From the NCBI GenBank assembly GCA_002434005.1, contig DJJF01000015.1:1004-45111 (forward strand): 44,108 nt of DNA, given 5' to 3'. The translations under genes and the position numbers were made by a program. The notes beneath the pieces are model-generated. The model did no database searches, had not been told where the DNA came from, and saw nothing but the letters and a program-made list of their open reading frames with translations. This DNA comes from Candidatus Saccharibacteria bacterium UBA6575. Lineage in GTDB: Bacteria > Patescibacteriota > Saccharimonadia > Saccharimonadales > Saccharimonadaceae. This document shows positions 1 to 25,491 of the stretch, in pieces. Position 1 is the first letter of the stretch; each line of letters opens with the position of its first letter.

Positions 1-2
1 AC

Positions 3-1157
3 ACGTCCCAGGCCTGCTGGCCGAAGGACGCAGCCGCCAACGTGACCGTGACGCCGCCGACGTGCGACGCGGCGGGGACGGCTTCGGTGACGGGTCTGCA
101 GAACGCGACGCTCGTGGGCACGCTCGACCAGTCGGTCGGCACCCACGTCGCGACGTTCAAGGCCGAGCCCGGCCACCTGTTCGCCAACGGCAGCGACACC
201 CTCCAGGTGTCGTACACGGTGGCGCCGAAGGACACATCCAAGTGTGAGGTCGTGAACCCCGTCAACCCGGAGGTCCAGCAGAGCACGTGCGTGGACGGCA
301 AGCCGACCACACCCATGCTCACGCTGGCGTCCACCGAGGGCATCGCCTACACCGTGTCGGCCCAGGCTCCCTACGGCCCGGGTCAGACGGTCGTGGTGAC
401 CGCCACCTGGGACGCGACCCACAACCAGCCGGCGAACCTGCCGGCCGGGTGGACCAAGACGTCGGCCAACGCGGCGACGTACAAGGTCACGTTCGCGAAG
501 CCGGATTGCACCGTGACCGTCCAGCCGCCGACCATCCCGGTCGTCGACGAGTGCGGTCCGAACAACGCCCACTACGGGGCGGTCCCCACCGGTCCCTGGA
601 CCTCGGTGACCAACTCTGACGGCAGCGTCACGGTCACGGCCAACCCTGGGAACACCTTCCCGAACGGTCAGTCCGTCACCTACCCGGCGCAGGTCGACTC
701 GAACGTGCCGTGCCCGGTGCCGCCGACGCCGCCCACCCCGACGTGCCCCGACGGCACGCCGTGGACGGACAGCAACCACAACGGCATGCCGGACGAGTGC
801 GTGGAGATCATCCCGCCGGTCCAGCTGACGGTGGTCAAGGGCGGTGCTGACATGCAGGACAAGTGCGGCACGGCCGGTGACATGTACATCGTCAAGCGCG
901 ACAAGGGCATCGTCTACACGGCCAACGGCAAGCGTGTCCGCGAGGGCAAGTGGCTGCCGACCAAGGGTGCCAAGACGGTCGTCGTCAAGGCCAAGGCCGC
1001 GTCCAAGAAGTACGTGCTGAAGCAGGGCTCGAAGACCATCTGGGTGTTCGGGTTCTCCACCAAGCCGTGCAAGCAGAAGCCCGACGAGCCGGTCCACACC
1101 GGTGCCAAGACGGCTTCGGCCAAGGTGCTCGGTCGGTTCAACCGCATGGTGGCATGA
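3..1157 (+). CDS. 5'-truncated secreted/cell-surface repeat protein with actinobacterial-type composition
   Basis: The frame is open from the window edge, with no stop upstream of the listed start at 42, and ends at TGA 1155-1157. GC is about 70% and third codon positions are almost all G/C. Cys-bounded modules repeat (..TCD...YTVAPKDTSKCE / ..TCVDG...KVTFAKPDC / ..DECG...NVPC), followed by a PPTPPTPTCP linker. The stop overlaps the next start (ATGA). Confidence 0.6.
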   Translation, partial: TSQACWPKDAAANVTVTPPTCDAAGTASVTGLQNATLVGTLDQSVGTHVATFKAEPGHLFANGSDTLQVSYTVAPKDTSKCEVVNPVNPEVQQSTCVDGKPTTPMLTLASTEGIAYTVSAQAPYGPGQTVVVTATWDATHNQPANLPAGWTKTSANAATYKVTFAKPDCTVTVQPPTIPVVDECGPNNAHYGAVPTGPWTSVTNSDGSVTVTANPGNTFPNGQSVTYPAQVDSNVPCPVPPTPPTPTCPDGTPWTDSNHNGMPDECVEIIPPVQLTVVKGGADMQDKCGTAGDMYIVKRDKGIVYTANGKRVREGKWLPTKGAKTVVVKAKAASKKYVLKQGSKTIWVFGFSTKPCKQKPDEPVHTGAKTASAKVLGRFNRMVA

Positions 1158-1702
1158 ACGGGCGCCTTCGGGCGCTCATCGCAGCAGTGTCCGTCGTGCT
1201 CGGCTTCCTCGTATGGGGAGCCGGGCCGGCGGACGCCGCTCCGGAGCGCATCACGGCACCAGCAACCGGGCTGAACGCTCCGGTTGTCTATGTCGAAGCG
1301 CCGGCGGGTGACCTTGGTGTCAGGGATAACCTCCACGTGGTCTACGCGTGGAAACATGGTGATCCTCCCTGTGACGCCAGCGGCTCCACCGTGTATGCCG
1401 GCCATGCCTGGCGTGCCGGCAACGGTGTCGCTGATCACTGGGGTCGCTTCAAGCCTGGAGACAGAATCCGGGTAGGTGGCTGTGCGTTCAAGGTGACTCA
1501 CAAGGAGTACTGGGGAGCAGACCGGGGAATCGGTCCGCTTTCCAGCCAGACTGGGCCACCGCGAATCGCACTGATCACCTGCAAGGCTGACGACTACTCC
1601 AAGCGGACGGTCGTCTTCGCCCGCAAGGTCGGCAGTAACGCGCCGAAGCACTGGCGACACAGCAGAGCCGAAGAGCCGCCCCGGGGAGGGAGATCTCCAT
1701 AG
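1154..1702 (+). CDS. Sortase-family transpeptidase (class E/F-like), N-terminal membrane anchor
   Basis: Starts MNGRLRALIAAVSVVLGFLVWGAGPADA (signal/anchor). Catalytic-type motifs are TVYAGHAW (His), IALITCK (TxxTC Cys) and RTVVFARK (Arg). It is in frame within ORF 950..1702, and its ATG at 1154 overlaps the upstream stop. High GC. Confidence 0.7.
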   Translation: MNGRLRALIAAVSVVLGFLVWGAGPADAAPERITAPATGLNAPVVYVEAPAGDLGVRDNLHVVYAWKHGDPPCDASGSTVYAGHAWRAGNGVADHWGRFKPGDRIRVGGCAFKVTHKEYWGADRGIGPLSSQTGPPRIALITCKADDYSKRTVVFARKVGSNAPKHWRHSRAEEPPRGGRSP

Positions 1703-1718
1703 GGGCAACGGGTCGTGA

Positions 1719-1767
1719 CCCTCCACACAAGGATTCAGTTCCGAGTGTGGAGGGGCACGGCCTTTTT
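1719..1767 (+). terminator. Intrinsic terminator closing GC-rich island 1
   Basis: Perfect 10-bp stem CCCTCCACAC (1719-1728) / GTGTGGAGGG (1745-1754), followed by GCACGGCCTTTTT. GC drops sharply right after it. Confidence 0.6.
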
Positions 1768-1782
1768 CATTTTCTGAAGATA

Positions 1783-1811
1783 TTGAAATTATTATTAATT
1801 TATGTTATAAT
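1783..1811 (+). promoter_or_regulatory. Sigma70-type promoter (TTGAAA-17 nt-TATAAT)
   Basis: TTGAAA at 1783-1788, a 17-nt spacer, TATAAT at 1806-1811. The ATG at 1821 is only 9 nt after the -10 element, so the mRNA is near-leaderless. Confidence 0.6.
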
Positions 1812-2839: not shown

Positions 2840-2943
2840 AAATAGATTGCGCATGATACCTTTTGGTCCTCAGGCGTAACGTCCCAGTGCATCCGCGCTG
2901 GTGATACATCTCCGCTTCATCTTGTATGAGAGGAACCTTCCCC

Positions 2944-3432
2944 ATGAAGAATCTGTTTGCGGCTTCCGCATTGATCATCGGTCTGCTCTTCGGAGTCACC
3001 CCGAGCGTAAGCGCTCAGGCAGGCGACCCCGACGTCTCGTCGACGCAGGCGTACGCCGACCCGGCCGTGCAGAACGTGCGGGTCACCAAGTACAAGCGCG
3101 GCATCAACCGCGCGTGCCCCCAGGGCAGCGACAAGATGTTCATCCTGGACGTCACCATGAGTGACGACTCGGTGGGCACGTTCGTCGACAGCGACGACGC
3201 GTTCGCGGTGATCACGCTGCGCAGCGGCCTGCCGGTGATCGACACCGACATGTTCCTGAACGCGCTCGACGGGCTTCGGACCGCCAGCTACTACCTGTAC
3301 ACCGACAACCGGCGTGCCCAGGTGCGCAAGAATCCGGCCTGGAACAGCGTGACGGTCAAGGGCTCCAGCCCTGACGTCAAGCTCACGGCCAGCCTGCGCA
3401 AGGACTGCCAGGAGTACATCGAAGAGCAGTGA
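2944..3432 (+). CDS. Small secreted protein of unknown function; GC-rich mature domain behind a backbone-like signal peptide
   Basis: MKNLFAASALIIGLLFGVTPSVSAQA|GDP is a Sec signal with an AxA cleavage site. GAGAGGAA lies 8 nt upstream of the ATG at 2944 (alternative start at 2926). Sampled GC jumps from about 51% (2944-3000) to about 72% (3001-3060). Confidence 0.6.
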   Translation: MKNLFAASALIIGLLFGVTPSVSAQAGDPDVSSTQAYADPAVQNVRVTKYKRGINRACPQGSDKMFILDVTMSDDSVGTFVDSDDAFAVITLRSGLPVIDTDMFLNALDGLRTASYYLYTDNRRAQVRKNPAWNSVTVKGSSPDVKLTASLRKDCQEYIEEQ

Positions 3433-3574: not shown

Positions 3575-5518
3575 GTGGACCAATTCCAATTCAATCAGGA
3601 TACTGATTCCCGACGTGGCTGGGCGCACAAGTTGCTATTCATCGGCATTACGTTCGGTGTGATCATCGTGGTTGGAATTGGCGTGTTCGCGTACACGTCA
3701 CAGCTGCCTGTCGATACGAAAGGCAGCGATGTAAAGGGCGGCGGTGCAAGCACCGACACCGGCTCGCGTGATGATTCCGATACTGACACGAGCCAATCTA
3801 CCGATGAAACGTCGACGGAAGATTCATCGGATGGCAATTGGTTCAGCTGGCTCTTTGGAAAACATAGCATCGCCGCAAAGGTCACTAGTTCTTCCGGGCT
3901 AAAAGGTTCAGTGCAGTACCTGAACGTACTCGCCAGCCTTACACCAAGCGAAGGTGCATCATTCGAGCCGACATCGCTACGTCTTAAACTTGTCTCAAAT
4001 CCGCGAGCCGGATCGGTACTAAGTGCCGACAAGCGAAATGTTACGGCACCAGGAGAAGGTACGTATTCCGCACTAGATAATGGCATCATCCGATTTACCC
4101 CTACGGCTCAATTTGTTGGCCAGGCACGGGGAGTAGGTTTTACCGTGACAGACACGGCCGGCGTAACGTTTACGAGTAGCTACATACCTGTCGTGAATGA
4201 CGTGGCGACTCCTCCGACACCCCCCGTCGTAACATGTAGCGACCCGGCCAGCGAAGGTATCTCATTATCAAACAGCAGGTTCTTTCTCTATTCGAATTTG
4301 GAGACGATGCCATTGGTTACCGACGCATGGAGTACGAACACGCTGAAGGGAAGTGATACCTTGAGCAGCCTTTACGTGATTGATGACAATGGCAATCTAC
4401 TACGCACATCAGAGGGTCAGTCTCGATGGAGCGCGGTACCAATAGCTAGTAATATGCGAGTGAACAGCTATGCTACAAGCAATGACGGTAACACGATATT
4501 CGCCAATGGACAAAGTGGTGACAATGATGCGGCTGGCTATCTGTCAACGGACGCAGGGAACACATGGACAAAACGATCGACGCTTTCTACCGATGGTGTC
4601 ATTGCCATGTCCGAATCTGGTCAAGTGATGATTACGAATGGTACGTCTGACCCTGAAGGCGGATTCGGAGTTATCACATCAATCGATGGTGGTACGACAT
4701 GGCTTCCAGCCCCAATAAATGCGGTTAACGTTGGGTCGGTCGCCCTAACGCCCGACGGCACGAAGATGTTCGTCGCGGCATTCGACCCGGTCGAAAACGA
4801 CTACCGAATATACCGCTCGACGGATAGCGGCCAGACTTGGGATTCAGTTGACCCGACCACTGACAATATCGGCTATGGCAGACTACTCACGAATGACGCA
4901 GGGACTGAACTATTCATGGATGCATATAGCTTCGATGATGATTCAAGTCCTCTGTATTATTCTAGCGATGGAGGTGATACCTGGCAGCAGGTGACGATAC
5001 CAGAAGGTATGAATGTCGATTTACTACAGATGTCGCTCGACGCATCGCGTATCGTTATGACGGCTCATGACCAGGATTACGCTGTGCAGCTGTACCAATC
5101 AACTGATAGCGGCGTCACTTGGCAGCCTATCACCGCACCGGGAAGTAGTTTCATTGCAGCATATGCTGGCCGAGACGGTACCTCGATTACGGTCGCGTCA
5201 TCGGAGGGTATCGTGACAAGCCATGATGGCGGAGTAACCTGGAACGCAGTCGCAAATATTCACGAGCGTTTCGATCTGACGAAGGTGGATCTCGACCCGC
5301 TGACTCCTGGCCAACAAATCTTCATAGATAAGACTGCCACGCAAGGATGGAGACTCGACTACGACACTTCTACGGGCATATTGACTCACGAGGTGACAGA
5401 CACAGACAAGTATGCAGAGCACACGGAAACCAGCACCGTCCAATACACGCTCATGCCTAAGCCAAATTGCTCGTCGCCAGCACCTGGAACGATAAACTTG
5501 ATAAAGGCTGATTTTTAG
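3575..5518 (+). CDS. Membrane-anchored surface protein with an Ig-like/CshA-like repeat and BNR/Asp-box beta-propeller repeats
   Basis: N-terminal TM segment (LLFIGITFGVIIVVGIGVFAY), then an S/D/T-rich linker. Six SxDxGxTW Asp-box motifs: STDAGNTW, SIDGGTTW, STDSGQTW, SSDGGDTW, STDSGVTW, SHDGGVTW. Confidence 0.7.
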   Translation: MDQFQFNQDTDSRRGWAHKLLFIGITFGVIIVVGIGVFAYTSQLPVDTKGSDVKGGGASTDTGSRDDSDTDTSQSTDETSTEDSSDGNWFSWLFGKHSIAAKVTSSSGLKGSVQYLNVLASLTPSEGASFEPTSLRLKLVSNPRAGSVLSADKRNVTAPGEGTYSALDNGIIRFTPTAQFVGQARGVGFTVTDTAGVTFTSSYIPVVNDVATPPTPPVVTCSDPASEGISLSNSRFFLYSNLETMPLVTDAWSTNTLKGSDTLSSLYVIDDNGNLLRTSEGQSRWSAVPIASNMRVNSYATSNDGNTIFANGQSGDNDAAGYLSTDAGNTWTKRSTLSTDGVIAMSESGQVMITNGTSDPEGGFGVITSIDGGTTWLPAPINAVNVGSVALTPDGTKMFVAAFDPVENDYRIYRSTDSGQTWDSVDPTTDNIGYGRLLTNDAGTELFMDAYSFDDDSSPLYYSSDGGDTWQQVTIPEGMNVDLLQMSLDASRIVMTAHDQDYAVQLYQSTDSGVTWQPITAPGSSFIAAYAGRDGTSITVASSEGIVTSHDGGVTWNAVANIHERFDLTKVDLDPLTPGQQIFIDKTATQGWRLDYDTSTGILTHEVTDTDKYAEHTETSTVQYTLMPKPNCSSPAPGTINLIKADF

Positions 5519-6688: not shown

Positions 6689-6987
6689 CCTCTTCTTTCT
6701 GGATTAATGGGATGTGGCCCTTAATGACTGCTTTGTCTTTCGAGGATTGAACCTCGGTAACTAGATGCCTAATTATAGCTTTTCTATCTGTAAAGTCCAA
6801 GTTTCTCAGTGCTGAACGAGCAGCAGAGCTTAACTTGTCGACTGACCATGTATCTTTGCTCGGCAGTCAGATTGGTTAAGTTAACCCTTGTATGGTATAA
6901 ATAATAAAAGTTCTTCAGTATAGAAGAAAGGTCTCGGAAACTACCGAGACCTTGTTCATTCCCAGCCCAAGAAGATAGGCGTGTACA

Positions 6988-8502
6988 GTGAAAGTAAATC
7001 GGTTCTTGTCGATGGCATTCTCTTGTGTGTTGCTTGCAACGCTAATGGGAACTGTTACGAGTAAAGCGTATGCGGCGAGTGATTACGACTCGTTCCTCAA
7101 TGTCACACCTACGCTATATGCGTACACCGATGGCCCGACGATGTCGGCCAAAATTGACCTGAGTACGACATGGCTCTCGGAATTTGAGCAGACCTACGAG
7201 AAGAGAGTTGTCGCACATCCAAGCTGGTCTCCAGATTTCATGAACGAGCTCAACGACATCATGTCCGAAGGCGGTTCCTGGGGTGTGTACGCAAAGCGGG
7301 TATCCGGTCTAGGAATTCAGATAGGTATCGTAGGTACCAGGGACCCTGATGGCTTCTGCCAGTTCAATGGTCCTGCGGCAACAGGTACATTTGCGTGCTC
7401 CGCAAATCCCGGGTATGGGTTCATCACGACTGATTACTTTACCCATAATTCATTTGGGTATAACGGCTGTGGCGGCTCCACGTGTAGCCAGAAAGGGATG
7501 AATACCTACGCGGAGCCCAATGTTGTTACCAGCACGGGAGGAGGAGCATTTCTCACAATCCCCAACACTGCGTTGGACGATTTCGAATTCTACTTCATGA
7601 ACTTCGACATCAACTATCCGGTTGGCTACCAGGGTGAAATGATTCCCACGTCACAGCCAGGCAACCGGTATGTGGCGATGGGGGATTCTTACTCATCCGG
7701 AGAGGGTAATCTCCCTTACGACTATGGGTCAGACACGATGGCAAACGTCTGTCACCGCAGCTCCAACGCATACCCGCGGCAACTCCAGGAAGATTTGGAC
7801 CTGAATCCGATGGTTTTTTCGGCATGCTCTGGTGCGGTGTCCGAGTATGTAATCGATAGTGCGAACCAGGAAAATCCGGAGCTACCACAGGCCGTGTATG
7901 TCTCAGATGCCACTGAACTGGTCACCATGACCATGGGAGGGAACGATGCGCAATTCGTACCTGCGATTCGAGAGTGTCTTGCTTCCACCGTTGCACAGGA
8001 CTGTCTTGACGCACTCGCGACGTCCAGTGCCATTGTGAACAGCACCGCATTCGAGTCCAACCTCGAGGAAATTTACGAAGGAGTGAAGTCTTTCGGCAAT
8101 ACCGATACGCAAATCATGGTGATTGGCTACCCGAGACTCTTCGCTCCATATGATGACATCGCGGGCACCTGCACCTGGGGTGACCCTGTTGTAGCTGCGT
8201 TTACGGATGTTCTCTCAGGGAGGACTATCACAGAAGATGAGCTCGATGCGCTCGCCGAACTGCAGAGTGACCTGAATCAGGCAATTTCCAACGCTGTTAC
8301 TGCCACCATGGACTCGGACATCAGTTTCATCGACCCGACTGCAGCTTTTTCGGGTCACGAGCTCTGCGGCGCGCAGACGGTCAAGTACATCAACGAGATC
8401 TCCCTGAGCGTCAACACTGGCGACCTCTTTTCTGGTTCATTCCACCCGAACCAGGCCGGTCAAGACGCCCTGGCATCGCTCGTAGGTGTTGAGCTCAGCT
8501 AG
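6988..8502 (+). CDS. Secreted SGNH/GDSL-family lipase/esterase with an unknown N-terminal domain
   Basis: Signal peptide ...GTVTSKAYA. SGNH blocks are VAMGDSYSSGEGN (block I), MTMGGNDAQF (block III) and SFHPNQAG (block V). Confidence 0.7.
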   Translation: MKVNRFLSMAFSCVLLATLMGTVTSKAYAASDYDSFLNVTPTLYAYTDGPTMSAKIDLSTTWLSEFEQTYEKRVVAHPSWSPDFMNELNDIMSEGGSWGVYAKRVSGLGIQIGIVGTRDPDGFCQFNGPAATGTFACSANPGYGFITTDYFTHNSFGYNGCGGSTCSQKGMNTYAEPNVVTSTGGGAFLTIPNTALDDFEFYFMNFDINYPVGYQGEMIPTSQPGNRYVAMGDSYSSGEGNLPYDYGSDTMANVCHRSSNAYPRQLQEDLDLNPMVFSACSGAVSEYVIDSANQENPELPQAVYVSDATELVTMTMGGNDAQFVPAIRECLASTVAQDCLDALATSSAIVNSTAFESNLEEIYEGVKSFGNTDTQIMVIGYPRLFAPYDDIAGTCTWGDPVVAAFTDVLSGRTITEDELDALAELQSDLNQAISNAVTATMDSDISFIDPTAAFSGHELCGAQTVKYINEISLSVNTGDLFSGSFHPNQAGQDALASLVGVELS

Positions 8503-8536
8503 ACGCAGCATCTGAAAAACACCCGCTGAAGAACAC

Positions 8537-8561
8537 CGCCCCCGATGTAGTGTCGGGGGCG
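8537..8561 (+). terminator. GC-rich hairpin after the lipase gene
   Basis: CGCCCCCGA (8537-8545) / TCGGGGGCG (8553-8561), a perfect 9-bp stem. The T-tract is weak (TCTTCAC). Confidence 0.4.
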
Positions 8562-8614
8562 TCTTCACGCATGAATCTTTCAACGATGAAGCTAAGTAAT
8601 GTATCATTATACTT

Positions 8615-16235: not shown

Positions 16236-16963
16236 TTGAAGTCAACCTGATACCTGATGTTAAACAAGAGCTCATCCGCGCGCGTACGCTCAGGTCAATG
16301 ATTGTATCTATTTCAATCCTAGCTATGCTTGCTTCTGGCGGCATCGTTGTGCTGCTCTCGCTCTACGTATTTGCAGGGCAGGGTGTGCGAAATGTCTTTG
16401 CAGATAACGCGATCAAGAGCGAATACGCTGAGCTCAAAAAGGTAAAAGACCTTTCCAATATGCTTACAATCCAAAACCAGCTTGCTAAGCTCTCGGAAAC
16501 GCACAGCAATAAAATGGTATCATCACGCCTATTCGATGTACTCGGTGTCATTATTCCTGCACCACCAAACGATGTATCTCTTACCTCGACAGATGTGAAT
16601 ACTGAAGAAGGAATTCTCACGATATCTGGCCAGTCTGGTAGTGGATTTGCGGCGTATGAGGCATTTAAAAAGACGATTGCGGCTACTAAGTTAATCTTCT
16701 ACGAAGGTGATGCAACGGAGGCAACCAATGTCGCACTTGCCTCAAACATTGTGGACGGCGAGCGTAGCTATGGAGAAGACCAAGATGGTCGTCGCGTGCT
16801 GCGTTTCACAATTTCGTTTACTTACGAACCAGCATTATTCGCATCGACGTCAAAGCGTATGGTCGTGCAGGGACCAGAGCGACGCAACGCAACCGACTCG
16901 TTCATTGCTATACCTGAAAGCCTATTTACGACACCTGCTAACGATGCGGGAGGAGCGCAGTAA
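16232..16963 (+). CDS. pilN: PilN-like pilus assembly protein
   Basis: MIEVNLIPD start with a single TM segment, as is typical of PilN. The call also rests on operon position. Confidence 0.6.
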   Translation: MIEVNLIPDVKQELIRARTLRSMIVSISILAMLASGGIVVLLSLYVFAGQGVRNVFADNAIKSEYAELKKVKDLSNMLTIQNQLAKLSETHSNKMVSSRLFDVLGVIIPAPPNDVSLTSTDVNTEEGILTISGQSGSGFAAYEAFKKTIAATKLIFYEGDATEATNVALASNIVDGERSYGEDQDGRRVLRFTISFTYEPALFASTSKRMVVQGPERRNATDSFIAIPESLFTTPANDAGGAQ

Positions 16964-17619
16964 TGGATAACGTAAAAGCCGATAAAACACTCCGCAAGCG
17001 CCAGCAGATTTCGAGTGCTAATCGAATGATGTTCATATGGGTCGCCGCCGGATCTGGAGTGGTAGGCGTGGCTCTAGTCGTCTCGATCTTCTTGGTGCAG
17101 CAGCTTGTCTTCAACGAAAAGGTATTAGCTCGTAAAAACCAAACTGTTAGTTCGCTCGAAAACAGCCAAAAAGCAGTGCCAGAGCTGCGTAACCAGATAG
17201 CGGTGCGGAACACCGATCAAGCACTGCTTGATAGCCGTGCCAAGGACAGTGACAAACCGCTCCAGGTTGTTATCGATGCATTACCTGATTCAGCAAACTC
17301 GGCCGCGCTTGGCGCATCGCTCCAGAATGTACTCATTCCTGGAACGGGTATCCAGCTCGAGGCTTTAAAAGTAGACCCACTCGATGCAACAAGTACCGAA
17401 GGTGTTATGACGTTCTTGTTCTCGGTATCAACTGATCGCGGCTCTATTGGTGAGCTTCGCAACCTACAGCAACGCCTTGAACGCTCAATCCGTGCCATTA
17501 ATGTAAAATCTGTACTTGTAGAAACATCTGTCGCTAAGGCGACTATGACAGTGAGCGGGGAAGCGTACTATCAGAGTGCGCGCAAACTTGAACTTGGAAC
17601 GGAGACGATCAAGCCATGA
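16963..17619 (+). CDS. pilO: PilO-like pilus assembly protein
   Basis: Single N-terminal TM segment followed by a coiled-coil segment. Translationally coupled (TAATG). The call rests on operon position. Confidence 0.5.
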   Translation: MDNVKADKTLRKRQQISSANRMMFIWVAAGSGVVGVALVVSIFLVQQLVFNEKVLARKNQTVSSLENSQKAVPELRNQIAVRNTDQALLDSRAKDSDKPLQVVIDALPDSANSAALGASLQNVLIPGTGIQLEALKVDPLDATSTEGVMTFLFSVSTDRGSIGELRNLQQRLERSIRAINVKSVLVETSVAKATMTVSGEAYYQSARKLELGTETIKP

Positions 17620-17855
17620 AAAAGTCTGATATCGCCATGATCATCTTGATTGCATCGGTTAGCATGATCGTCGCTTACTTCGTGGTGAAGTCGATTCCGA
17701 TCTTCCAGAGTTCAAGCGAGCCAAAGAAGGTAAGCACTTTCCAAGAAATTACCTCGAACGTCGACGAACCAGATCCTGAAGTATTCAACTCCGGAGCGAT
17801 AAACCCAACGGTCGAAGTCTTTATTGGCGGAAACTCAGCATCGTCAGGGCAGTAG
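17616..17855 (+). CDS. Small single-TM protein in the pil operon
   Basis: 79 aa, TM segment IAMIILIASVSMIVAYFVV, overlaps pilO by 4 nt. Confidence 0.45.
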   Translation: MKKSDIAMIILIASVSMIVAYFVVKSIPIFQSSSEPKKVSTFQEITSNVDEPDPEVFNSGAINPTVEVFIGGNSASSGQ

Positions 17856-17865
17856 GTAGCCGCTT

Positions 17866-19629
17866 ATGGCACTTCTAACACCAGAAATACAGGAAAAGCT
17901 GACAACGCTTTTAGTTGAAGAAGGGTTGATTACTCAGACTGCGATAGACACCGCCAAGGATACTGCTACCAAAGAGAATCAGCCACTCATGACGACGCTC
18001 GTAAAGTCGGGAGATATCAGCGATGAGTTACTGACACATGCAACTGCTCAGGTTTCGGGTGTTCCATATGTAAACCTAAGCAACACGCTTATTAACGAGC
18101 AGATTCTTTCACTGCTGCCCGAAGATATAGCTGAGCGCTTTATGGCAGTGCCACTCGCTGAAGTGCAAAATCGTCTCGCGGTCGCTATGATCGACGCTAA
18201 CAACGTTCAGGCAGTCGACTTCCTGGCAAACCGTATCAACCGGCCTTTAAAGGTATTTATGGCATCCGAAGCCGGTATTCGGCACGTACTCGAGCAATAC
18301 AAGACCGACCTATCGTCGGTTGATATGGCTGCCGAGGAGTCCGAAGAGGCTGCGCAGACCAAGGCTTCAAGTAACATCAAAACAATTGTGCAGGACTCGC
18401 CGATTTCGCGAGCACTTAGTACCATTTTGGAATTCGCAGTAAAGAGTAAGGCAAGTGACATCCATATTGAACCACTCGAGAATGCACTCAAGATCCGCTG
18501 TCGAGTAGACGGTGTACTACGTGAGATTATGCAGCTGCCAAAATCAATTGAACCAGCATTAATTAGTCGAATAAAGATTTTGTCCAACCTCAAGATTGAC
18601 GAACACCGTGTGCCACAAGACGGTCAGTTCGCAGTTAGCGTTGCCAAGAAGGAAGTTGACCTTCGTATCGCTATATCACCGGTTGTTTGGGGTGAGCAGG
18701 TGGTTATCCGTCTTCTCGACAAGAGTGGGAACAGCTTTGACCTAGAGCAAATGGGCTATGCTGGCCGCGGTCTACGCACAATACGTAAAGGTGTAAAACG
18801 ACCAAACGGAATGATTTTAACGAGTGGTCCAACTGGTAGTGGTAAGTCGACCAGTTTGTATGCTCTAATCAAGGAAATCAAAGACGACTCAGTCAACATT
18901 GTGACACTCGAAGATCCAGTTGAATACAAGATGCAAGGTGTGAACCAGATTCAGGTGAATGCTGAAGTTGGCTTGACCTTTGCTAACGGGCTTCGTTCAA
19001 TCCTTCGTCAAGACCCAGACATCGTAATGGTAGGGGAGATCCGTGACAAAGAAACCGCAGAGCTCGCGGTGCAGGCTGCACTTACTGGGCACTTGGTATT
19101 CAGTACGCTTCACACCAACTCAGCAGCTGGAGTGTTGCCGCGTCTACTCGACATGGGAATTGAACCGTTCTTGATCGCCAGTACCGTGAATACGATCATC
19201 GGTCAGCGTTTAGTGCGCCGTGTAGCCACGAAGCGCGATGCATATAACTCGAGCCCGATTGAAACCCAGAACATTCTAACAACCGTGGGGCACTTACTAC
19301 CTCAGACAAAAGACGTCGTCACGCAGGTATCCGAAGACCTGGGGTATAAAGACTTGCCGTTAGCTGGCCAAAGCGCTTATACTTTAGTCAAAGGTAAAGA
19401 TACACCTCAGACACCACGTGGCTACTCAGGCCGCGCAGGACTATACGAGGTAATGGATGTTACCGAGGAAATTCAAAATTTGATCATCAAACGCGCAACC
19501 AGCGCCGAGATTCAAAAGGTAGCAGTCGCGCAGGGTATGGTGACAATGCGTCAGGACGGTTACCTGAAGGCACTGGGCGGACTTACCACAATGGAAGAAG
19601 TGAACCGAGTAGCGGCCGATACGGCATAA
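17866..19629 (+). CDS. pilB: Type IV pilus extension ATPase PilB (GspE family)
   Basis: GspE N-terminal domain, Walker A SGPTGSGKSTSLYA, and the Asp and His boxes (LRQDPDIVMVGEIRD, GHLVFSTLHTN). Confidence 0.9.
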   Translation: MALLTPEIQEKLTTLLVEEGLITQTAIDTAKDTATKENQPLMTTLVKSGDISDELLTHATAQVSGVPYVNLSNTLINEQILSLLPEDIAERFMAVPLAEVQNRLAVAMIDANNVQAVDFLANRINRPLKVFMASEAGIRHVLEQYKTDLSSVDMAAEESEEAAQTKASSNIKTIVQDSPISRALSTILEFAVKSKASDIHIEPLENALKIRCRVDGVLREIMQLPKSIEPALISRIKILSNLKIDEHRVPQDGQFAVSVAKKEVDLRIAISPVVWGEQVVIRLLDKSGNSFDLEQMGYAGRGLRTIRKGVKRPNGMILTSGPTGSGKSTSLYALIKEIKDDSVNIVTLEDPVEYKMQGVNQIQVNAEVGLTFANGLRSILRQDPDIVMVGEIRDKETAELAVQAALTGHLVFSTLHTNSAAGVLPRLLDMGIEPFLIASTVNTIIGQRLVRRVATKRDAYNSSPIETQNILTTVGHLLPQTKDVVTQVSEDLGYKDLPLAGQSAYTLVKGKDTPQTPRGYSGRAGLYEVMDVTEEIQNLIIKRATSAEIQKVAVAQGMVTMRQDGYLKALGGLTTMEEVNRVAADTA

Positions 19630-19648
19630 CAAAGGTGGGATAAACGAT

Positions 19649-20716
19649 ATGCAACAAGAACTTAGGATAGAACTGTTACTCGAAGAAGTGGTGAAGAAGC
19701 GTGCCAGTGACCTTCACTTGCAGGTTGGATTGCCGCCTATGCTTCGTGTTGACGGTAGCCTTAACCCGATTCCGGGGTACAATCCGCTTGGTGAGGCAGA
19801 AGTAGAGCAATTGATCTATGCGATCCTTGATGAAGACCAGCAGCAGATACTGAACAAAGATAAGGAATTCGACTTTTCATTTGCTTTTGGCAACTTAGGG
19901 CGATTCCGTGTTAACGCTTTCCACGAACGGGGAAACCTAGCAGGTGCACTTCGTTTAATCCCGAACGAGATCAAGAACGTTATGGAGCTTGGTATGCCGC
20001 AGGTCGTGCAGTCATTCGCCGATTATCCACGCGGCCTCGTGCTTGTAACTGGTCCAACTGGTAGCGGTAAGTCTACAACGCTCGCAGCGCTTGTCGATAA
20101 GATCAACACCGAGAAGTCTCACCACATTATTACCATCGAAGACCCGATCGAGTTCACGCATAAGTCAAAGAAATCTGTCATTGTCCAGCGTGAAGTGCAC
20201 TATGACACCTACAGCTTCTCGGCAGCCCTGCGAAGCTCATTGCGTCAGGACCCGGACGTTGTGTTGATCGGTGAGATGCGTGACCTCGAAACTATTTCAG
20301 CGGCTATCACGATCGCAGAAACTGGGCACTTGGTATTCGCGACCCTGCACACCAACTCCGCTGCGCAGTCGATCGACCGTATGATTGACGTATTCCCGCC
20401 GCACCAGCAGCCACAAATTCGCGCACAGCTATCTAATATCCTTATGGCGATTTGTTCCCAGCGTCTCGTGCCAGCCATTGGTGGTGGTCGTGTCGTCGCA
20501 GCAGAAGTGTTAATTGCGAATCCTGCTGTGCGTAACATTATTCGTGAAGGTAAGAGCCACCAGCTCGATGCAGTTATTCAAACTTCAGCCGACCAAGGCA
20601 TGCAGACAATGGACCGTACACTCGTAAGCTTGGTGCAAGCTGGTACGATTACCTACGATGAAGCTCGTAACTATGCTGTTGATCTAACCGAATTCGAACG
20701 ATTGATGAGAGGCTAG
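19649..20716 (+). CDS. pilT: Twitching motility retraction ATPase PilT
   Basis: 355 aa. ASDLHL, TGPTGSGKSTTLAA, LRQDPDVVLIGEMRD, GHLVFATLHTNSA and the AIRNIIREGK-like motif. Confidence 0.9.
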   Translation: MQQELRIELLLEEVVKKRASDLHLQVGLPPMLRVDGSLNPIPGYNPLGEAEVEQLIYAILDEDQQQILNKDKEFDFSFAFGNLGRFRVNAFHERGNLAGALRLIPNEIKNVMELGMPQVVQSFADYPRGLVLVTGPTGSGKSTTLAALVDKINTEKSHHIITIEDPIEFTHKSKKSVIVQREVHYDTYSFSAALRSSLRQDPDVVLIGEMRDLETISAAITIAETGHLVFATLHTNSAAQSIDRMIDVFPPHQQPQIRAQLSNILMAICSQRLVPAIGGGRVVAAEVLIANPAVRNIIREGKSHQLDAVIQTSADQGMQTMDRTLVSLVQAGTITYDEARNYAVDLTEFERLMRG

Positions 20717-20729
20717 TCAGGGGCATTAC

Positions 20730-21941
20730 GTGAAGCGCTATACCTACGAAGCAAAAGATACCTCTACCGGTAAAAAGGTAAAATCGGTTGTACAGGCTGA
20801 GAGTGAGCAGGCAGCTGCAAAAGTGCTGCTTGCTCAGGGTTTTGCACCATTAAACATCGAAGAAGAGGGTAATAGCGACTCCATTCTCGCGCGGTTTACA
20901 AACCGCATCGGTACAAAAGACAAGATCGTATTCAGTCGTCAACTCGCCACACTGATTGGCGCCGGCTTGCCGCTATCCCAGAGCATGCGCACGATTGCCG
21001 AGCAGACTGAAAACAAACGATTCCGAGCCATTGTTGAAGAAATTCTCGCAGATGTTGAATCAGGTAAGACACTATCCGACTCATTCGCAAAGTACCCGGA
21101 TATATTCGACAAAGTGTTTTTATCTCTTATAAAAGCGGGTGAAGCATCCGGTACACTCGATGACGCCTTAAAGCGGATTGCGAATCAGCAAGAGAAAGAT
21201 GCCGCCATGATGAGCAAGATCAAGGGGGCGCTTACATATCCACTTATCGTTCTTGTCGTCATATTTGGTGTTATGGCGTTCATGCTATTCACTGTTGTTC
21301 CACAGGTTGAAAAACTCTATGACGACCTAGGTAAAGAACTGCCATTCCTTACCCAAACCATGGTGAACGGAGCAGACTTCTTAACGAAGTTCTGGTGGCT
21401 CGTGATAATAATCCTGGGTGTAGCGGGTTACTTCATTGCTCAGTATCTTAAAACAGAAGACGGTATAAAGGTGAAAGACACATTTAAGCTAAATGTGCCG
21501 CTATTCGGGGTGATGTTCCGAAAACTCTACATGGCTCGATTTGCACGTACAGCTCAGACGCTGCTGAATACCGGTGTTCCAATGCTTGATATGCTCAAAA
21601 TTACTAGTGAGGCAGTAAACAACACAATCGTTGGCGCAGGTATCACTCGTGCAGCCGAGAAGGTAAAGGGCGGTAAGGCTCTATCGGAATCAATCGCTTC
21701 GGAAGAATATATCCTTCAGTTAGTTCCACAAATGGTCAAGATCGGCGAGCAATCCGGTAAGATCGATGAAATGCTAGGGCGAGCGGCCCAGGTATATGAG
21801 GATGAGTTAGACGAGCAGATCAAGGCGATTTCGACCGCGATCGAGCCACTCCTAATGGTGGTACTAGCTGTCGTAGCAGGTGGTATGGTAGGGGCTATCT
21901 TGTTCCCAATATATAGCCTCGTTAACGGCGTTAACGTTTAA
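20730..21941 (+). CDS. pilC: Type IV pilus platform protein PilC (GspF family)
   Basis: 403 aa with two GspF repeats (FSRQLATLIGAGLPL.. and FARTAQTLLNTGVPM..) and three TM segments. GTG start. Confidence 0.85.
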   Translation: MKRYTYEAKDTSTGKKVKSVVQAESEQAAAKVLLAQGFAPLNIEEEGNSDSILARFTNRIGTKDKIVFSRQLATLIGAGLPLSQSMRTIAEQTENKRFRAIVEEILADVESGKTLSDSFAKYPDIFDKVFLSLIKAGEASGTLDDALKRIANQQEKDAAMMSKIKGALTYPLIVLVVIFGVMAFMLFTVVPQVEKLYDDLGKELPFLTQTMVNGADFLTKFWWLVIIILGVAGYFIAQYLKTEDGIKVKDTFKLNVPLFGVMFRKLYMARFARTAQTLLNTGVPMLDMLKITSEAVNNTIVGAGITRAAEKVKGGKALSESIASEEYILQLVPQMVKIGEQSGKIDEMLGRAAQVYEDELDEQIKAISTAIEPLLMVVLAVVAGGMVGAILFPIYSLVNGVNV

Positions 21942-21944
21942 CTA

Positions 21945-21973
21945 TAGACAAAACATACGCTCGTGCGTATGAT
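21945..21973 (+). promoter_or_regulatory. Sigma70-type promoter for the pilin gene (TAGACA-17 nt-TATGAT)
   Basis: TAGACA at 21945-21950 and TATGAT at 21968-21973. Confidence 0.5.
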
Positions 21974-22028
21974 AAGCGTAAGCAAGAATGCTTAACAGTT
22001 TAAGTTCATAGAAAGGTGGGAATCAAAT

Positions 22029-22511
22029 ATGAACGCTCAAACTAAAAAACAAGGATTCACGATCATCGAAGTCGTGCTTGTCCTTGCAATCGCAGGACTT
22101 ATCTTCCTGATGGTGTTCATTGCATTGCCTGCACTGCAGCGCAACCAGCGTGACACAGCACGAAAGAACGACATGAGCCGGGCTCAGACGGCTATCAACA
22201 CAGCGGCTTCTAATAGCCGAGGCGCCCTGCCAACGCTTGACGCGGCATTTATCACTAGGTACCTACAGGTAAACGGTGATGAATTCAAAGACCCAGCCGG
22301 TAAAGACTATGCATTCTCAGCGCTAGCTGGTGCTGCTGCTCCGACAACTGGATTCGACGGCAACAACAGTGCACAGACCAACGTGCGTGTCTTCTACACA
22401 ACCGGAGCGGTGTGTGGTAACGATGGTGTAGTCACGCTAAACCAAGGCTCGCGTAAGGTCGCGCTTCGACTCGTTCTCGAAGGTGGCGGTATCTCCTGCG
22501 TTAACAACTAG
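22029..22511 (+). CDS. pilA: Major type IV pilin
   Basis: Class III signal KKQG|FTIIEVVLVLAIAGLIFL. 160 aa with a C-terminal Cys pair. It has its own promoter and a strong terminator. Confidence 0.85.
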   Translation: MNAQTKKQGFTIIEVVLVLAIAGLIFLMVFIALPALQRNQRDTARKNDMSRAQTAINTAASNSRGALPTLDAAFITRYLQVNGDEFKDPAGKDYAFSALAGAAAPTTGFDGNNSAQTNVRVFYTTGAVCGNDGVVTLNQGSRKVALRLVLEGGGISCVNN

Positions 22512-22532
22512 CAGATAATGAGATCTCTAAAA

Positions 22533-22559
22533 CCAGCTCGCTTGTGCGAGCTGGTTTTT
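22533..22559 (+). terminator. Intrinsic terminator after the pilin gene
   Basis: CCAGCTCGCttgtGCGAGCTGG followed by TTTTT. Confidence 0.8.
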
Positions 22560-22591
22560 CGTATCAAGTATGTCTGTTATGATGAAAAGCA

Positions 22592-23500
22592 ATGACCGTA
22601 CTGCTTTCGTTTATTGCCGGGGTGATGGGCCTCCTACTGGGGAGTTTCGCTGGCGCACAGGTGTGGCGCTTACGGGCGCGTCAACTGGCTCATGATAAGG
22701 CAGCAGGTGAAGAGTACGACACATCTGAATATAAACGCCTACATGGCCTTATGGGGCAGAAAACAAGCGAGGATCGCTCACGATGCCTATCGTGCGGCCA
22801 CACGTTAGCCTGGTACGACCTTATCCCACTTGTCAGCTGGGTGAGCACAAGAGGGAAATGTCGCTATTGCAAGCAGCCCATTGGGCTTTTAGAGCCACTT
22901 ATTGAACTAGGCACGGCATCCGTTTTCGGTCTATTTACGTATATGTGGATTGCATCGTCAGGTTTACAAGCATTCGGACTCATTCTACTCTTGCTCTGGT
23001 TAGCGGCATTCGTGATGCTTATCATCTTGTTTGTGTACGATCTGAAATGGTTCTTGCTGCCAGATGTTATCATGTTTCCACTCATTGGGTTATCGCTCGT
23101 CATATCCCTAATGAGCATCACGCTATTTTCTAATGCTACGCTCGGAGAAATCGCTTCGACCACTACCAGCGTTGCTATACTCGGGGGCTTGTATCTGATC
23201 CTCTGGCTTGTATCAAAGGGTGCATGGGTCGGGTTCGGTGATGTGAAACTGGGTGTGGCGCTTGGATTACTGCTCATGGATTGGAAGCTGGCACTTCTGA
23301 CACTATTTCTTGCAAACCTCATTGGTACACTGGTCGTACTACCAGGCCTCCTTTCGGGCAAGCTGTCACGCAAGGCTCAGGTGCCGTTTGGCCCATTCCT
23401 CATACTCGGATTCTTTATTTCACTTACTGCAGGTCATTGGATTCTAGATGGCTATATGGCATTCACCCAGTGGTTGAGTACCGTTTTGCTTATGCTATAA
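22592..23500 (+). CDS. pilD: Prepilin peptidase/N-methyltransferase PilD (A24 family)
   Basis: A CxxC...CxxC zinc-finger region (CLSCGH..CRYCK), multiple TM segments, and the GFGDVKL catalytic Asp motif. Confidence 0.85.
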   Translation: MTVLLSFIAGVMGLLLGSFAGAQVWRLRARQLAHDKAAGEEYDTSEYKRLHGLMGQKTSEDRSRCLSCGHTLAWYDLIPLVSWVSTRGKCRYCKQPIGLLEPLIELGTASVFGLFTYMWIASSGLQAFGLILLLLWLAAFVMLIILFVYDLKWFLLPDVIMFPLIGLSLVISLMSITLFSNATLGEIASTTTSVAILGGLYLILWLVSKGAWVGFGDVKLGVALGLLLMDWKLALLTLFLANLIGTLVVLPGLLSGKLSRKAQVPFGPFLILGFFISLTAGHWILDGYMAFTQWLSTVLLML

Positions 23501-23566
23501 TTACCCCAAATGGGCGCATACTTCAGATCACGTAAACAGGGGCGGACGGGCGATGAAGTGCGTCGC

Positions 23567-24289
23567 ATGCCGGTACATGGTTTTACGATCATCGAAGTTA
23601 TGCTATTTTTTGCTGTTACAGGCGCACTAATGCTTGGAGTTCTTGGAACAGCGTCGATAGGGGTTAATACGCAGCGCTACAATGATGCGGTTAATACTTT
23701 CGTTTCGATTGTGCAGCAGGAGTTTACGAATGTTACGAATGTCGTAAATTCCAATTCAGATACGAGCGTGTGTGCATCTGCATCGAACGTAAATCGTGGA
23801 ATATCAGATTGCGTGATTCTTGGACGATTGATGACAATTGATAGCAACGGTGATATGGTCCGCTCAAATATCGTAAGTACAACCACACCGACCACGCCAC
23901 CAGCTACGAATACTCGTGAGCTTGCAGTTGTCCGCGGCTATAATCCGCGTATTGACACCTCAAGCCAAGAAGACGGCCAGATGAACTGGGGAACCCGTAT
24001 TTTGCGAGGTTCAAACGGTTCAAACGTAGCGCTCCTTATTATTCGGTCTCCGCGCTCAGGAAATGTGTATAGCTATGTTGTACATTCGAGTGTAGGAATT
24101 CCTACAGATGTCAGTGATTTAATTGACGATATCATTGGAGGGGCTGCCGATAACTCGCGTGACCAATATATGTGTATTGATCGCTCCGGCTGGGTTGCGT
24201 CCAGTATGCGCGTCGTCAAGCTTACACCGTATGCGTCTGGGCCGGGTGGCGTAAATGTTGAGGATGAGTCAGGATCGGTATGCGGATAG
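23567..24289 (+). CDS. Minor pilin/pseudopilin
   Basis: MPVHG|FTIIEVMLFFAVTGAL prepilin N-terminus. The track start at 23510 would give an unusually long leader. Confidence 0.6.
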   Translation: MPVHGFTIIEVMLFFAVTGALMLGVLGTASIGVNTQRYNDAVNTFVSIVQQEFTNVTNVVNSNSDTSVCASASNVNRGISDCVILGRLMTIDSNGDMVRSNIVSTTTPTTPPATNTRELAVVRGYNPRIDTSSQEDGQMNWGTRILRGSNGSNVALLIIRSPRSGNVYSYVVHSSVGIPTDVSDLIDDIIGGAADNSRDQYMCIDRSGWVASSMRVVKLTPYASGPGGVNVEDESGSVCG

Positions 24290-25491
24290 GCGTGAACCAG
24301 CGTGGCGATACGATTATAGAGGTCATGGTAGCCTTTGCCGTATTTGCAATGGTTGCCGTTGGGGCGTTTACCATCATGAATCAAGGTACTGCCGGAGCAC
24401 AGAACACGCTTGAAACTACGTTGGTGCGCCAGCAAGTCGATAACCAGGCTGAATATATCCGGTACTTACACCAAGCATATATCTCGAATCCAAACGACCT
24501 AACCCCCGGGAGTGCCAGCGTTAAATTCAAGGATATTTTAGCTTTTGCAGAGACTGCGCACGACAACGGCCTCACACAGCCGAGCTCGTTTGGGGCAACC
24601 TGTACGCAGACTATTCCTGGAACCGACACATCACGCTTCGTACTCAACAAATCGGGCGATAGGATTTCTAATGTACGTCCCGCATCATCTATTGGTGCGG
24701 CGGTCGCACCGTATGCGCAGCTAGCCGACTCCACTACTTCATACGGGCTGTGGATCGAGCCGATCGTATCCGAACCCGATGCTAGCGGAACTACCCGTTA
24801 TATCGATTTTCATGTACGAGCTTGTTGGGAGAGTGCCTCGGCGAGTTCGCAAAGTACGCTTGGAACAATTGTACGTCTGTATGTGCCGGATAATGTGGCG
24901 ACCGGATCGGTCGGCTCCGGCGGCTCTCCAATTCCTGCCCCAACTATGATCACTGACTTTAGCTATGACGGCGCATCGAGGAATGGTTGCTACCCACATA
25001 AAGATGTTGAGCGTGACGAGCAATCTGAGTCTCGCCCAACTTGGACGCCTCCACTGGCGACATTACCTGGTATGGATGGTGTCGATGTATCCGCACCGGC
25101 TGTATGGCAATGCCAGGTAGAGGGAGCTGCGGTCTACTCGTGTGTGAACTACGATGTACAATACCAACCGAATATCCCAGCAGCATCCACCGGTAACTAC
25201 GAATTGACGCTCCGGTACTACGATGCGAATTGCGGCGCATATAATTATGTTGTTCCACCGTATGTATTCAAAGTTGATATTTACAAAGATGACGCATACC
25301 TACGAACCGTCGATCTTTCTCCTTCGGCCACTCCCGGCGGACTTAGAACGAGTACTGCGATCAATATTGGCGCAGTGTCGCCAACTACACGAATCCAGAT
25401 ACGCTGGTGGAATAACCACTTCTATGGACCGACTATGCAAGATCCTGATTTCGCCATTCAGCAATTGATACTCCAAAGGACAGGGCCGTAA
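24280..25491 (+). CDS. Large pseudopilin-like protein
   Basis: N-terminus NQRG|DTIIEVMVAFAVFAMV is prepilin-like. 403 aa. Overlaps the upstream gene. Confidence 0.5.
   Translation: MRIGVNQRGDTIIEVMVAFAVFAMVAVGAFTIMNQGTAGAQNTLETTLVRQQVDNQAEYIRYLHQAYISNPNDLTPGSASVKFKDILAFAETAHDNGLTQPSSFGATCTQTIPGTDTSRFVLNKSGDRISNVRPASSIGAAVAPYAQLADSTTSYGLWIEPIVSEPDASGTTRYIDFHVRACWESASASSQSTLGTIVRLYVPDNVATGSVGSGGSPIPAPTMITDFSYDGASRNGCYPHKDVERDEQSESRPTWTPPLATLPGMDGVDVSAPAVWQCQVEGAAVYSCVNYDVQYQPNIPAASTGNYELTLRYYDANCGAYNYVVPPYVFKVDIYKDDAYLRTVDLSPSATPGGLRTSTAINIGAVSPTTRIQIRWWNNHFYGPTMQDPDFAIQQLILQRTGP

Follow-up and report, generated by a model that had tools for sequence, protein, structure and literature searches.

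A probable ancient Nocardioidaceae-type surface-protein and sortase operon resident at one locus in Saccharibacteria

The GC-rich operon at the left end of the window

We analysed a 44,108-nucleotide (nt) stretch of DNA from Candidatus Saccharibacteria bacterium UBA6575 (assembly GCA_002434005.1, contig DJJF01000015.1), hereafter called the window. Its first 1,767 nt are rich in guanine plus cytosine (GC) and make up the promoter-distal two-thirds of an operon of 2.4 kb, whose two genes encode a surface protein (gene 1) and a small sortase (gene 2). The left flank of this island was read from a 94,907-bp European Nucleotide Archive (ENA) contig (ERZ761597 NODE_15, locus L001), which encodes exactly the same sortase protein and, starting at window position 104, agrees with the window over 11.6 kb with 0 mismatches. 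The features of the island and its right edge are listed below in window coordinates.

1-1157, plus strand: surface-protein gene (gene 1), 3' 384 codons; the full gene encodes 604 amino acids (aa) and lies at L001 8190-10004
1-103, plus strand: variant stretch inside gene 1, in frame, with 39 mismatches to L001 8848-8950
C-terminus of gene 1: candidate sortase signal region, sequence ...KPDEPVHTGAKTA...
1086-1103, plus strand: degenerate sortase signal E-P-V-H-T-G, with an invariant T and G across the family
1154-1702, plus strand: gene 2, small sortase of 182 aa with an N-terminal signal/anchor helix, recognised by Pfam PF04203, fold and catalytic triad
1403-1405, 1580-1582 and 1622-1624, plus strand: catalytic codons for His84, Cys143 and Arg157
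1710-1775, plus strand: intrinsic terminator (54-nt hairpin at 1710-1763 and U-tract) that closes the GC-rich unit
1783-1811, plus strand: backbone-type promoter TTGAAA-17-TATAAT with TG at the right junction, serving the next gene (1821-2807)

The GC content was 66.8% at positions 1-1767 and 49.0% at 1768-44108. A preliminary description of this DNA, made from the sequence alone, had given about 72% versus about 48%; the contrast stands, with the figures slightly off. The island reached z = 7.9, and every other 1767-nt segment had a GC fraction of 0.552 or less (mean 0.491, standard deviation 0.022). By gene, the GC fraction was 0.68 for gene 1 and 0.648 for gene 2, with the third codon position as the main carrier of the signal. 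The GC fraction at third codon positions (GC3) was 0.94 in the part of gene 1 within the window (0.917 at full length) and 0.70 in the sortase gene, compared with 0.37-0.60 in backbone genes. The near-saturated GC3 described earlier thus applies to the surface-protein gene but not to the sortase gene.

High GC is limited by a start codon on the left and by a terminator just past a stop codon on the right, and the GC-rich stretch spans 2.4 kb on contig L001 (about 8150-10620). The left boundary, which the preliminary description had placed outside the window, was located by leftward extension at the gene 1 start codon (L001 8190), about 660 nt left of the window. The 243-nt spacer upstream of gene 1 has backbone-like composition and holds the operon promoter, which is of backbone type (TTTACT-17-TATAAT) and lies about 200 nt upstream of gene 1. 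The right edge is sharp: the terminator hairpin folds at -40 kcal/mol (z = -5.96), a stability that none of 200 shuffled sequences equalled, and is followed by a spacer (1768-1830) of 22% GC with the backbone-type promoter. We found no mobility marks at the borders (flanking direct repeats, tRNA or integrase; the tRNA scan covered 20.5 kb), and the genes neighbouring the island are housekeeping or surface-protein genes.

In its full-length form, the gene 1 protein begins with a signal peptide and a AHHNTITGSVSC domain. Several beta domains bracketed by Cys follow, among them a CGPNNAHYG repeat, and the protein closes with a conserved C-terminal domain of the pattern DKCG...GVVY...W...F...C. 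It contains 14 Cys residues, and its structural model is a string of all-beta domains (predicted local distance difference test [pLDDT] 80), in agreement with the Cys-bounded surface protein proposed at the outset. Foldseek returned no significant PDB match for this model (best E = 0.037), and no Pfam or NCBIfam profile fitted the surface protein or its homologues. A nearly invariant Lys, in DKCG, opens the C-terminal domain that bears the signal. Most homologues carry [AS/LP]PxTG near the C-terminus, with T-G invariant. In the window, EPVHTG is followed by 17 mostly polar or basic residues, giving the tail AKTASAKVLGRFNRMVA. The tail after the signal Gly is 0-2 residues long in Nocardioidaceae and consists of 1-23 polar residues in Saccharibacteria. 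The stop codon of gene 1 overlaps the sortase start in an ATGA at 1154-1157, the coupling that had been reported.

At the very start of the window, the switch at 103/104 between the variant stretch and the sequence shared with L001 has a 17-nt exact repeat beside it (L001 8879 and 8924). The switch could mark a point of recombination between alleles, or a tandem domain that collapsed in assembly. A copy of another part of the same gene was considered and rejected, as positions 1-103 had no match elsewhere in the gene.

The assignment of gene 2 as a sortase with His, Cys and Arg motifs drew agreement from three lines of evidence. The protein matched Pfam PF04203 at 39.3 bits (cut-off 26.6; E = 6.3e-10) over the whole 125-position profile. 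Its AlphaFold model (pLDDT 77) had only sortases A, C, D and E among the top 50 Foldseek matches in the PDB, each with probability 1.0, and a target-normalised template modelling (TM) score of up to 0.75, in keeping with the eight-stranded beta barrel of the sortase fold. Across 21 homologues, His84 and Cys143 were invariant and Arg157 was present in at least 90%. An N-terminal hydrophobic helix is followed by an A-D-A motif.

The cassette in other Saccharibacteria and in Actinomycetota

On L001, the island has backbone of about 50% GC on both sides: upstream lie FtsK, S6, SSB, S18, EF-P, a DprA-domain gene, FtsJ/TlyA and a CshA-repeat protein, and downstream lie the window's own genes. An independent Logan assembly of SRR5325092 also crosses the right junction, with 0 mismatches. 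The backbone gene order FtsK-S6-SSB-S18-EF-P-FtsJ ... YchF ... PilM is common to GCA_035437425.1, UBA6572 and CAYOVH01. Backbone proteins were 75-99% identical to, and syntenic with, NCBI and GTDB records named Candidatus Saccharibacteria; identities to GCA_035437425.1 (L006) were 99% for S18, 87% for EF-P and 81% for YchF. The backbone is thus that of a Saccharibacterium, as had been stated.

We found the cassette at the locus between FtsJ and YchF in at least nine Saccharibacteria lineages, GC-rich in all of them. The nearest sortases to that of the window had 79%, 73% and 60% identity and lay on contigs with the window's gene order. The loci are as follows.

L003 and L004 (two Logan runs): share with the window the surface protein, sortase, terminator, TGTTATAAT promoter and ATGGAAC start, as well as a GC-rich 162-aa gene, the CshA/BNR protein and YchF
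L005 (ERZ28654998): same right junction as the window
L006 (GCA_035437425.1, 9515-10155): surface protein at the same place, ending PPPHTGAKESTAPA; sortase lost
L007 (ERZ761581): cassette between FtsJ and YchF
L010 (GTDB representative UBA6572, same lineage as L007): cassette between FtsJ and YchF
L046 (uncultured Candidatus Saccharibacteria): cassette between FtsJ and YchF
L057 and L058 (two Joint Genome Institute [JGI] metagenomes): cassette between FtsJ and YchF
L059 (ERZ23248150): cassette between FtsJ and YchF
L060 and L061 (ERZ1645187): cassette directly upstream of YchF; the contig begins inside the surface gene

A tblastn search of the L006 metagenome-assembled genome (MAG) found no sortase. 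The same junction does occur in related genomes: three lineages (those of the window, L003 and L005) have homologous right junctions, with the promoter region conserved in L003 and L005, and terminators stand at the equivalent position in L003, L005 and L007. Across Saccharibacteria, GC3 was 0.78-0.96 for the surface gene and 0.63-0.83 for the sortase gene, compared with about 0.5 for the backbone of most carriers and about 0.7 for that of L057. The L057 contig (JGI 3300029936) has a backbone GC fraction of 0.59, yet its cassette is higher (surface gene GC3 0.96). At positions 2340-2650 of the 2.65-kb L005 record, a truncated homologue of the 328-aa gene of the window adjoins part of TypA/BipA in inverted orientation, with a GC3 of 0.83; this junction reflects a rearrangement or else a misjoined scaffold.

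A search of 5.8 billion proteins revealed no near-identical donor. The named sortase matches in that search were from Nocardioides, at 53-61% identity, and the best actinobacterial sortase identity was about 55-63%. Surface-protein matches came from Nocardioides, Isoptericola, Antribacter and a few Saccharibacteria. The identity of surface-protein segments to actinobacterial sequences did not exceed 67% in aa and 81% in nt. A first contig scan with a single sortase as the query had no match. An alignment-based query run on one genome per GTDB species yielded 47 species loci, two from Candidatus Saccharibacteria and 45 actinobacterial, the latter with about 70% GC and belonging to Nocardioides, Pimelobacter, Propionibacteriales and uncultured Actinomycetota. 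The surface-protein gene overlapped the sortase gene by 4 or 1 nt in at least 43 of these 45, and the surface proteins so encoded ended in C-x3-P-x3-[AS]PxTG plus 0-2 residues. Sortase GC3 in these genomes was mostly 0.87-0.97, matching neighbouring genes; it was 0.74-0.86 at three Nocardioides second-copy loci. The cassette is therefore actinobacterial in type, as the preliminary description proposed. Given its distribution, its gene overlap and the shared C-terminal ending in actinobacterial loci, we regard the two-gene module as a feature of Nocardioidaceae, and its composition and distribution indicate transfer from Actinomycetota to Saccharibacteria.

The three Nocardioides loci with lower GC3 (L051, L053 and L055) comprise a second copy in Nocardioides alpinus and copies in two Nocardioides MAGs, and form a separate cassette clade. 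Their proteins have canonical LP[DA]TGA ends, in genomes of 70% GC. The position of this clade may reflect transfer back from Saccharibacteria.

Age of the cassette and competing explanations

We consider that a surface-protein and sortase operon of Nocardioidaceae type entered an ancestor of these Saccharibacteria long ago and is now the standing occupant of one locus, a reading to which we assign a probability of about 70%. In a neighbour-joining tree of 52 sequences (200 bootstrap replicates), six Saccharibacteria-borne sortases grouped together with a support of 0.495, and those of the window (L001), L003 and L005 formed a firm clade (0.975). In a 164-sequence tree, which is a point estimate, all Saccharibacteria-borne sortases fell on one side of a 39-member split, together with four actinobacterial sequences. 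Two more members of that side whose context we checked (P0026 and P0088) were both Saccharibacteria-borne at the FtsJ-YchF locus. The Saccharibacteria-borne sortases also share an indel and sequence signatures, and this, with their grouping on one side of the split, favours one old entry. Relationships within the group are less orderly. L057 has the YchF closest to the window's after L003 (86-88% identity), yet no sortase is more distant from the window's than that of L057 (46%), which comes nearest to the L046 type, and the N-terminal domain sets of the surface proteins differ between lineages. From the conflict between sortase and YchF and the differing N-terminal domains, we conclude that this locus has seen exchange of whole cassettes or of portions of them.

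The high GC3 of the cassette has outlasted extensive sequence divergence. Between the window lineage and L003, synonymous codon choice in backbone genes (YchF and a 750-aa protein) had reached 84-86% of saturation, compared with 36-48% in GC3-rich genes (the surface-protein C-terminus, the sortase, hyp162 and a 224-aa protein), even though the latter were more divergent than backbone genes at the protein level. Third-position synonymous changes on the two terminal branches, with L005 as the outgroup, numbered 21 from GC to AT, 7 from AT to GC and 9 between G and C, a pattern pointing to slow net decay. In deeper pairs, the synonymous sites of the cassette were near saturation (0.75-1.0), with GC3 still at 0.7-0.9. 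Surface-gene GC3 exceeded that of the adjacent sortase in every Saccharibacteria lineage, and the two were equal in donors. The preliminary description had called the island not ameliorated, which is half correct: in Saccharibacteria the sortase gene is down to a GC3 of 0.63-0.83, compared with 0.87-0.97 in most actinobacterial copies, and the polarised synonymous changes show a net flux towards AT. It had also raised the possibility that the nearest homologues lie in Patescibacteria of similar GC; they do lie in Saccharibacteria, but those copies are compositional islands too.

Another gene shares the anomaly.

2926-3432: hyp162, encoding a 168-aa exported protein, with a GC3 of 0.89 in a backbone of about 0.5

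A set of 1.84 billion proteins contained only nine representatives of the hyp162 family. Wherever a context or name was known, they were from Saccharibacteria, the only named member being from Candidatus Saccharimonadales, and no actinobacterial homologue was present among the 1.84 billion representatives. Directly after the sortase, L057 and L059 carry a 157-aa GC3-rich gene, which in L057 is the hyp162 homologue. Because high GC3 persists in saturated pairs and in the hyp162 family, it is not simply a clock of recent transfer. We rejected expression-linked codon bias as a cause, since the genes for S6, S18, EF-P and SSB had a GC3 of only 0.47-0.63. The gene for the 224-aa protein mentioned above (12160-12834) encodes an exported protein with Ala/Lys-rich short repeats at 12562-12663 and has a GC3 of 0.84. 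Its L003 counterpart is 83% identical in aa, with synonymous divergence as low as that of the island, and a weak positional counterpart in L006 has a GC3 of 0.78.

Several observations weigh against an ancient entry with a dedicated enzyme-substrate pair. Backbone synonymous sites are about 85% saturated, compared with 36-48% in GC-rich genes that keep a GC3 of 0.8-0.9, a combination of low saturation and retained GC3 that would not be expected from plain neutral amelioration of an anciently captured cassette. Monophyly of all Saccharibacteria copies received only about 50% bootstrap support, and the conflict between the sortase tree and YchF means that simple vertical descent from one capture is not the whole story. 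The signal departs from the canonical type for cell-wall sorting, and the family nowhere has a hydrophobic segment or charged tail; in the window copy (EPVHTG), moreover, the Pro is at -3, not at -2 as in the usual APxTG. In L006, the surface protein is kept without the sortase, and the substrate thus persists without its dedicated enzyme. The displaced Pro and the sortase loss counsel caution on the predicted mechanism.

Three accounts of the island other than an old, resident cassette found little room in the data. An assembly or binning chimera, in which an actinobacterial fragment was joined to a Saccharibacteria contig, would account for the abrupt GC step and for the first 103 nt of the window being at odds with another assembly. 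The island is, however, internal to the 94.9-kb contig with syntenic Saccharibacteria genes on either side, its right junction is identical in the Logan assembly, and the same arrangement recurs across unrelated samples and assemblers, more than eight in all, with two GTDB representatives among them; we therefore take the junction as genuine and give a chimera next to no weight. Very recent capture from a present actinobacterial host, with no time to ameliorate, was what the preliminary description had favoured. The actinobacterial homologues and the donor-like GC3 of the surface-protein gene (0.92-0.94) fit it, but the low identities to any actinobacterial sequence (55-63% for the sortase; no higher than 67% aa and 81% nt in surface segments) do not, and neither does a sortase GC3 that is already 0.70. 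The GC-rich stretch is confined between a start codon and a terminator, with a backbone-like upstream flank and a backbone-type promoter, and the same locus and a homologous junction occur in lineages whose sortases are 20-55% divergent. With YchF 75-90% and the sortase 45-80% identical among carriers, we consider very recent acquisition untenable and its probability very small. Slightly less probable still is the reverse direction, in which a module native to Saccharibacteria passed to Nocardioidaceae. The Nocardioides loci L051, L053 and L055 do adjoin the Saccharibacteria group in the tree, with GC3 (0.74-0.86) below the norm of their own genomes; against this, the main Nocardioidaceae clade is compositionally at home across dozens of species, and Saccharibacteria cassettes are everywhere 0.2-0.45 above backbone GC3.

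Two further explanations concern how the anomaly has lasted, and we regard each as unlikely, though far less so than the preceding three. The FtsJ-YchF locus might repeatedly gain cassette alleles or segments by recombination, either from high-GC actinobacterial DNA or by swaps between Saccharibacteria lineages, renewing the donor-like GC3. Such turnover would explain the incongruence of the sortase tree with YchF, the varied N-terminal domain sets, the excess of surface-gene over sortase GC3 in every lineage but not in donors, the lower synonymous divergence of GC-rich than of backbone genes, and the abrupt switch between two assemblies at window position 103/104. It sits poorly with the lack of a close actinobacterial donor for any segment, with the clustering of Saccharibacteria-borne sortases that have a common indel and signatures, and with hyp162, which shows the GC3 anomaly at the same locus without an actinobacterial homologue. 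Alternatively, the cassette may have been captured once, long ago, and inherited vertically since, while selection acting on synonymous sites, or another gene-specific bias, actively maintained high GC3 in a set of exported-protein genes. A GC3 of 0.78-0.96 in surface and hyp162-like genes, where backbone synonymous sites are saturated and copies are only 26-45% identical in protein, speaks for this, as do an anomaly bounded by a start codon and by a terminator just past a stop codon and its presence in a Saccharibacteria-only gene family. The net flux from GC to AT (21 versus 7) would instead imply drift to a lower equilibrium, strong codon selection is unexpected in an epibiont with a small population, ribosomal and EF-P genes lack the bias, and the tree incongruence is left unexplained.

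Compared with our preferred reading of an old capture that became a fast-evolving resident, a more far-reaching proposal is one that we hold to be doubtful. An environmental Saccharibacteria clade may keep a small set of exported-protein genes at one locus (surface protein, sortase and hyp162) permanently donor-like and GC3-rich, either through repeated recombination of host or sister alleles by a competent epibiont or through synonymous selection. If this were true, the epibiont would construct its host-facing surface from, and keep it up to date with, a wall-display module of the host itself, which would use a previously undescribed, anchor-less PxTG signal at the extreme C-terminus and a dedicated mini-sortase.

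Neighbouring genes, proposed function and relation to known systems

Two genes that flank or separate the GC-rich genes, at 1821-2807 (328-aa protein) and 3575-5518 (CshA-repeat/BNR-Sortilin protein), encode hypervariable exported proteins with backbone composition; they are 36-38% identical to their L003 counterparts, compared with 90% for YchF. About 5 kb of the window (6762-11700) is absent from the syntenic L003 contig. This segment contains a GDSL-lipase-like gene (6988-8502), small open reading frames (ORFs) and a 280-aa RVT_1 reverse transcriptase (10769-11611). We considered a diversity-generating retroelement as the cause of the odd composition and rejected it, as no template and variable repeat pair lies near the reverse transcriptase. 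Downstream, a type IV pilus gene cluster of normal backbone composition (15189-27436) comprises a PilM-like gene, ATPase-like genes and several prepilin-like ORFs with N-terminal GFTLIE motifs; this assignment is based on PilM_2 Pfam matches of the L003 and L006 counterparts and on ORF translations only.

Under our preferred reading, an operon type native to the high-GC Nocardioidaceae (Actinomycetota) would have entered the ancestor of an environmental Saccharibacteria clade of about 50% GC. It would have stayed between FtsJ/TlyA and YchF as a fast-evolving resident, occasionally swapped among lineages. The gene 1 product is a Sec-exported, all-beta, Cys-bracketed protein of several domains, with a conserved C-terminal domain ending in a candidate PxTG-type signal. 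Gene 2, translationally coupled to gene 1, encodes a small, dedicated enzyme of sortase fold, a predicted Cys transpeptidase. We infer that this enzyme would cut the signal between T and G while the C-terminus is emerging from the membrane, and that the acceptor would be either the epibiont's own wall precursor or the conserved DKCG Lys of another subunit. The predicted outcome is a covalently fixed fibre on the cell surface, with a putative role in attachment. Such a fibre could mediate contact with Nocardioides-like hosts, a reasonable guess from the identity of the donor and the epibiotic habit of cultured Saccharibacteria.

These results link an uncultured Saccharibacteria clade of about 50% GC to Nocardioidaceae, offering a lead for host prediction and co-cultivation. 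They also define an uncharacterised two-gene module, common in Nocardioides, that pairs a mini-sortase with an [AS]PxTG-ending protein without a membrane anchor. Finally, they provide a clean counter-example to the equation of unameliorated composition with recent transfer, as the anomaly outlasts the saturation of backbone synonymous sites. We found no description in the literature of the module, of the anchor-less signal or of its conserved presence in Saccharibacteria, and nothing specific on the sample accessions, on Saccharibacteria-Nocardioides host pairs or on sortase transfer involving Saccharibacteria.

The cassette is a variant of known themes, namely dedicated sortase-substrate operons and inter-phylum transfer. 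Class F sortases of Actinobacteria, first studied in Propionibacterium (Cutibacterium) acnes, resemble gene 2 in being small actinobacterial enzymes with one N-terminal hydrophobic helix and a His/Cys/Arg triad, and the best NCBIfam match of the window sortase was the class F profile NF033748. However, its score was 21.7 bits, and two Nocardioides proteins that NCBI labels class F sortase scored within 23-29 bits (23.4 and 28.8), all below the curated cut-off of 166. A phmmer search of PDB sequences gave no match, leaving the window sortase without a sequence-level match to any PDB chain. The cassette sortase also differs in being overlapped by one dedicated substrate gene, with an anchor-less signal at the extreme C-terminus. 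The physiological roles of class F sortases are still unknown (PMC13251363).

Canonical substrates of sortases A and E (LPXTG/LAXTG) share with the cassette protein a signal peptide and beaded beta domains, and a C-terminal xPxTG with invariant T-G occurs in most of its homologues. By contrast, the cassette protein lacks a hydrophobic segment or stop-transfer tail, and its window copy reads EPVHTG. Pilin-type sortase C operons, whose substrates polymerise through a Lys, likewise combine a substrate and a dedicated sortase in one operon; the nearly invariant DKCG Lys and the sortase C enzymes among the structural matches add to this likeness, and the surface protein might conceivably polymerise. 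The cassette differs from these operons in having no recognisable pilin motif, E-box or lid and no evident housekeeping-sortase step.

Gene acquisition by Saccharibacteria has been documented, for example as independent acquisitions in mammal-associated groups (PMC7427843), and there is a description of Saccharibacteria from soil, about 50% in GC, whose hosts are suspected to be actinobacterial (PMC6031116). Like acquired genes in Saccharibacteria and other Candidate Phyla Radiation (CPR) epibionts, the cassette is a set of genes of foreign type within the reduced genome of an epibiont. Unlike them, it has an identifiable donor family, the Nocardioidaceae, and it is fixed at one locus across many lineages, where its compositional anomaly persists.

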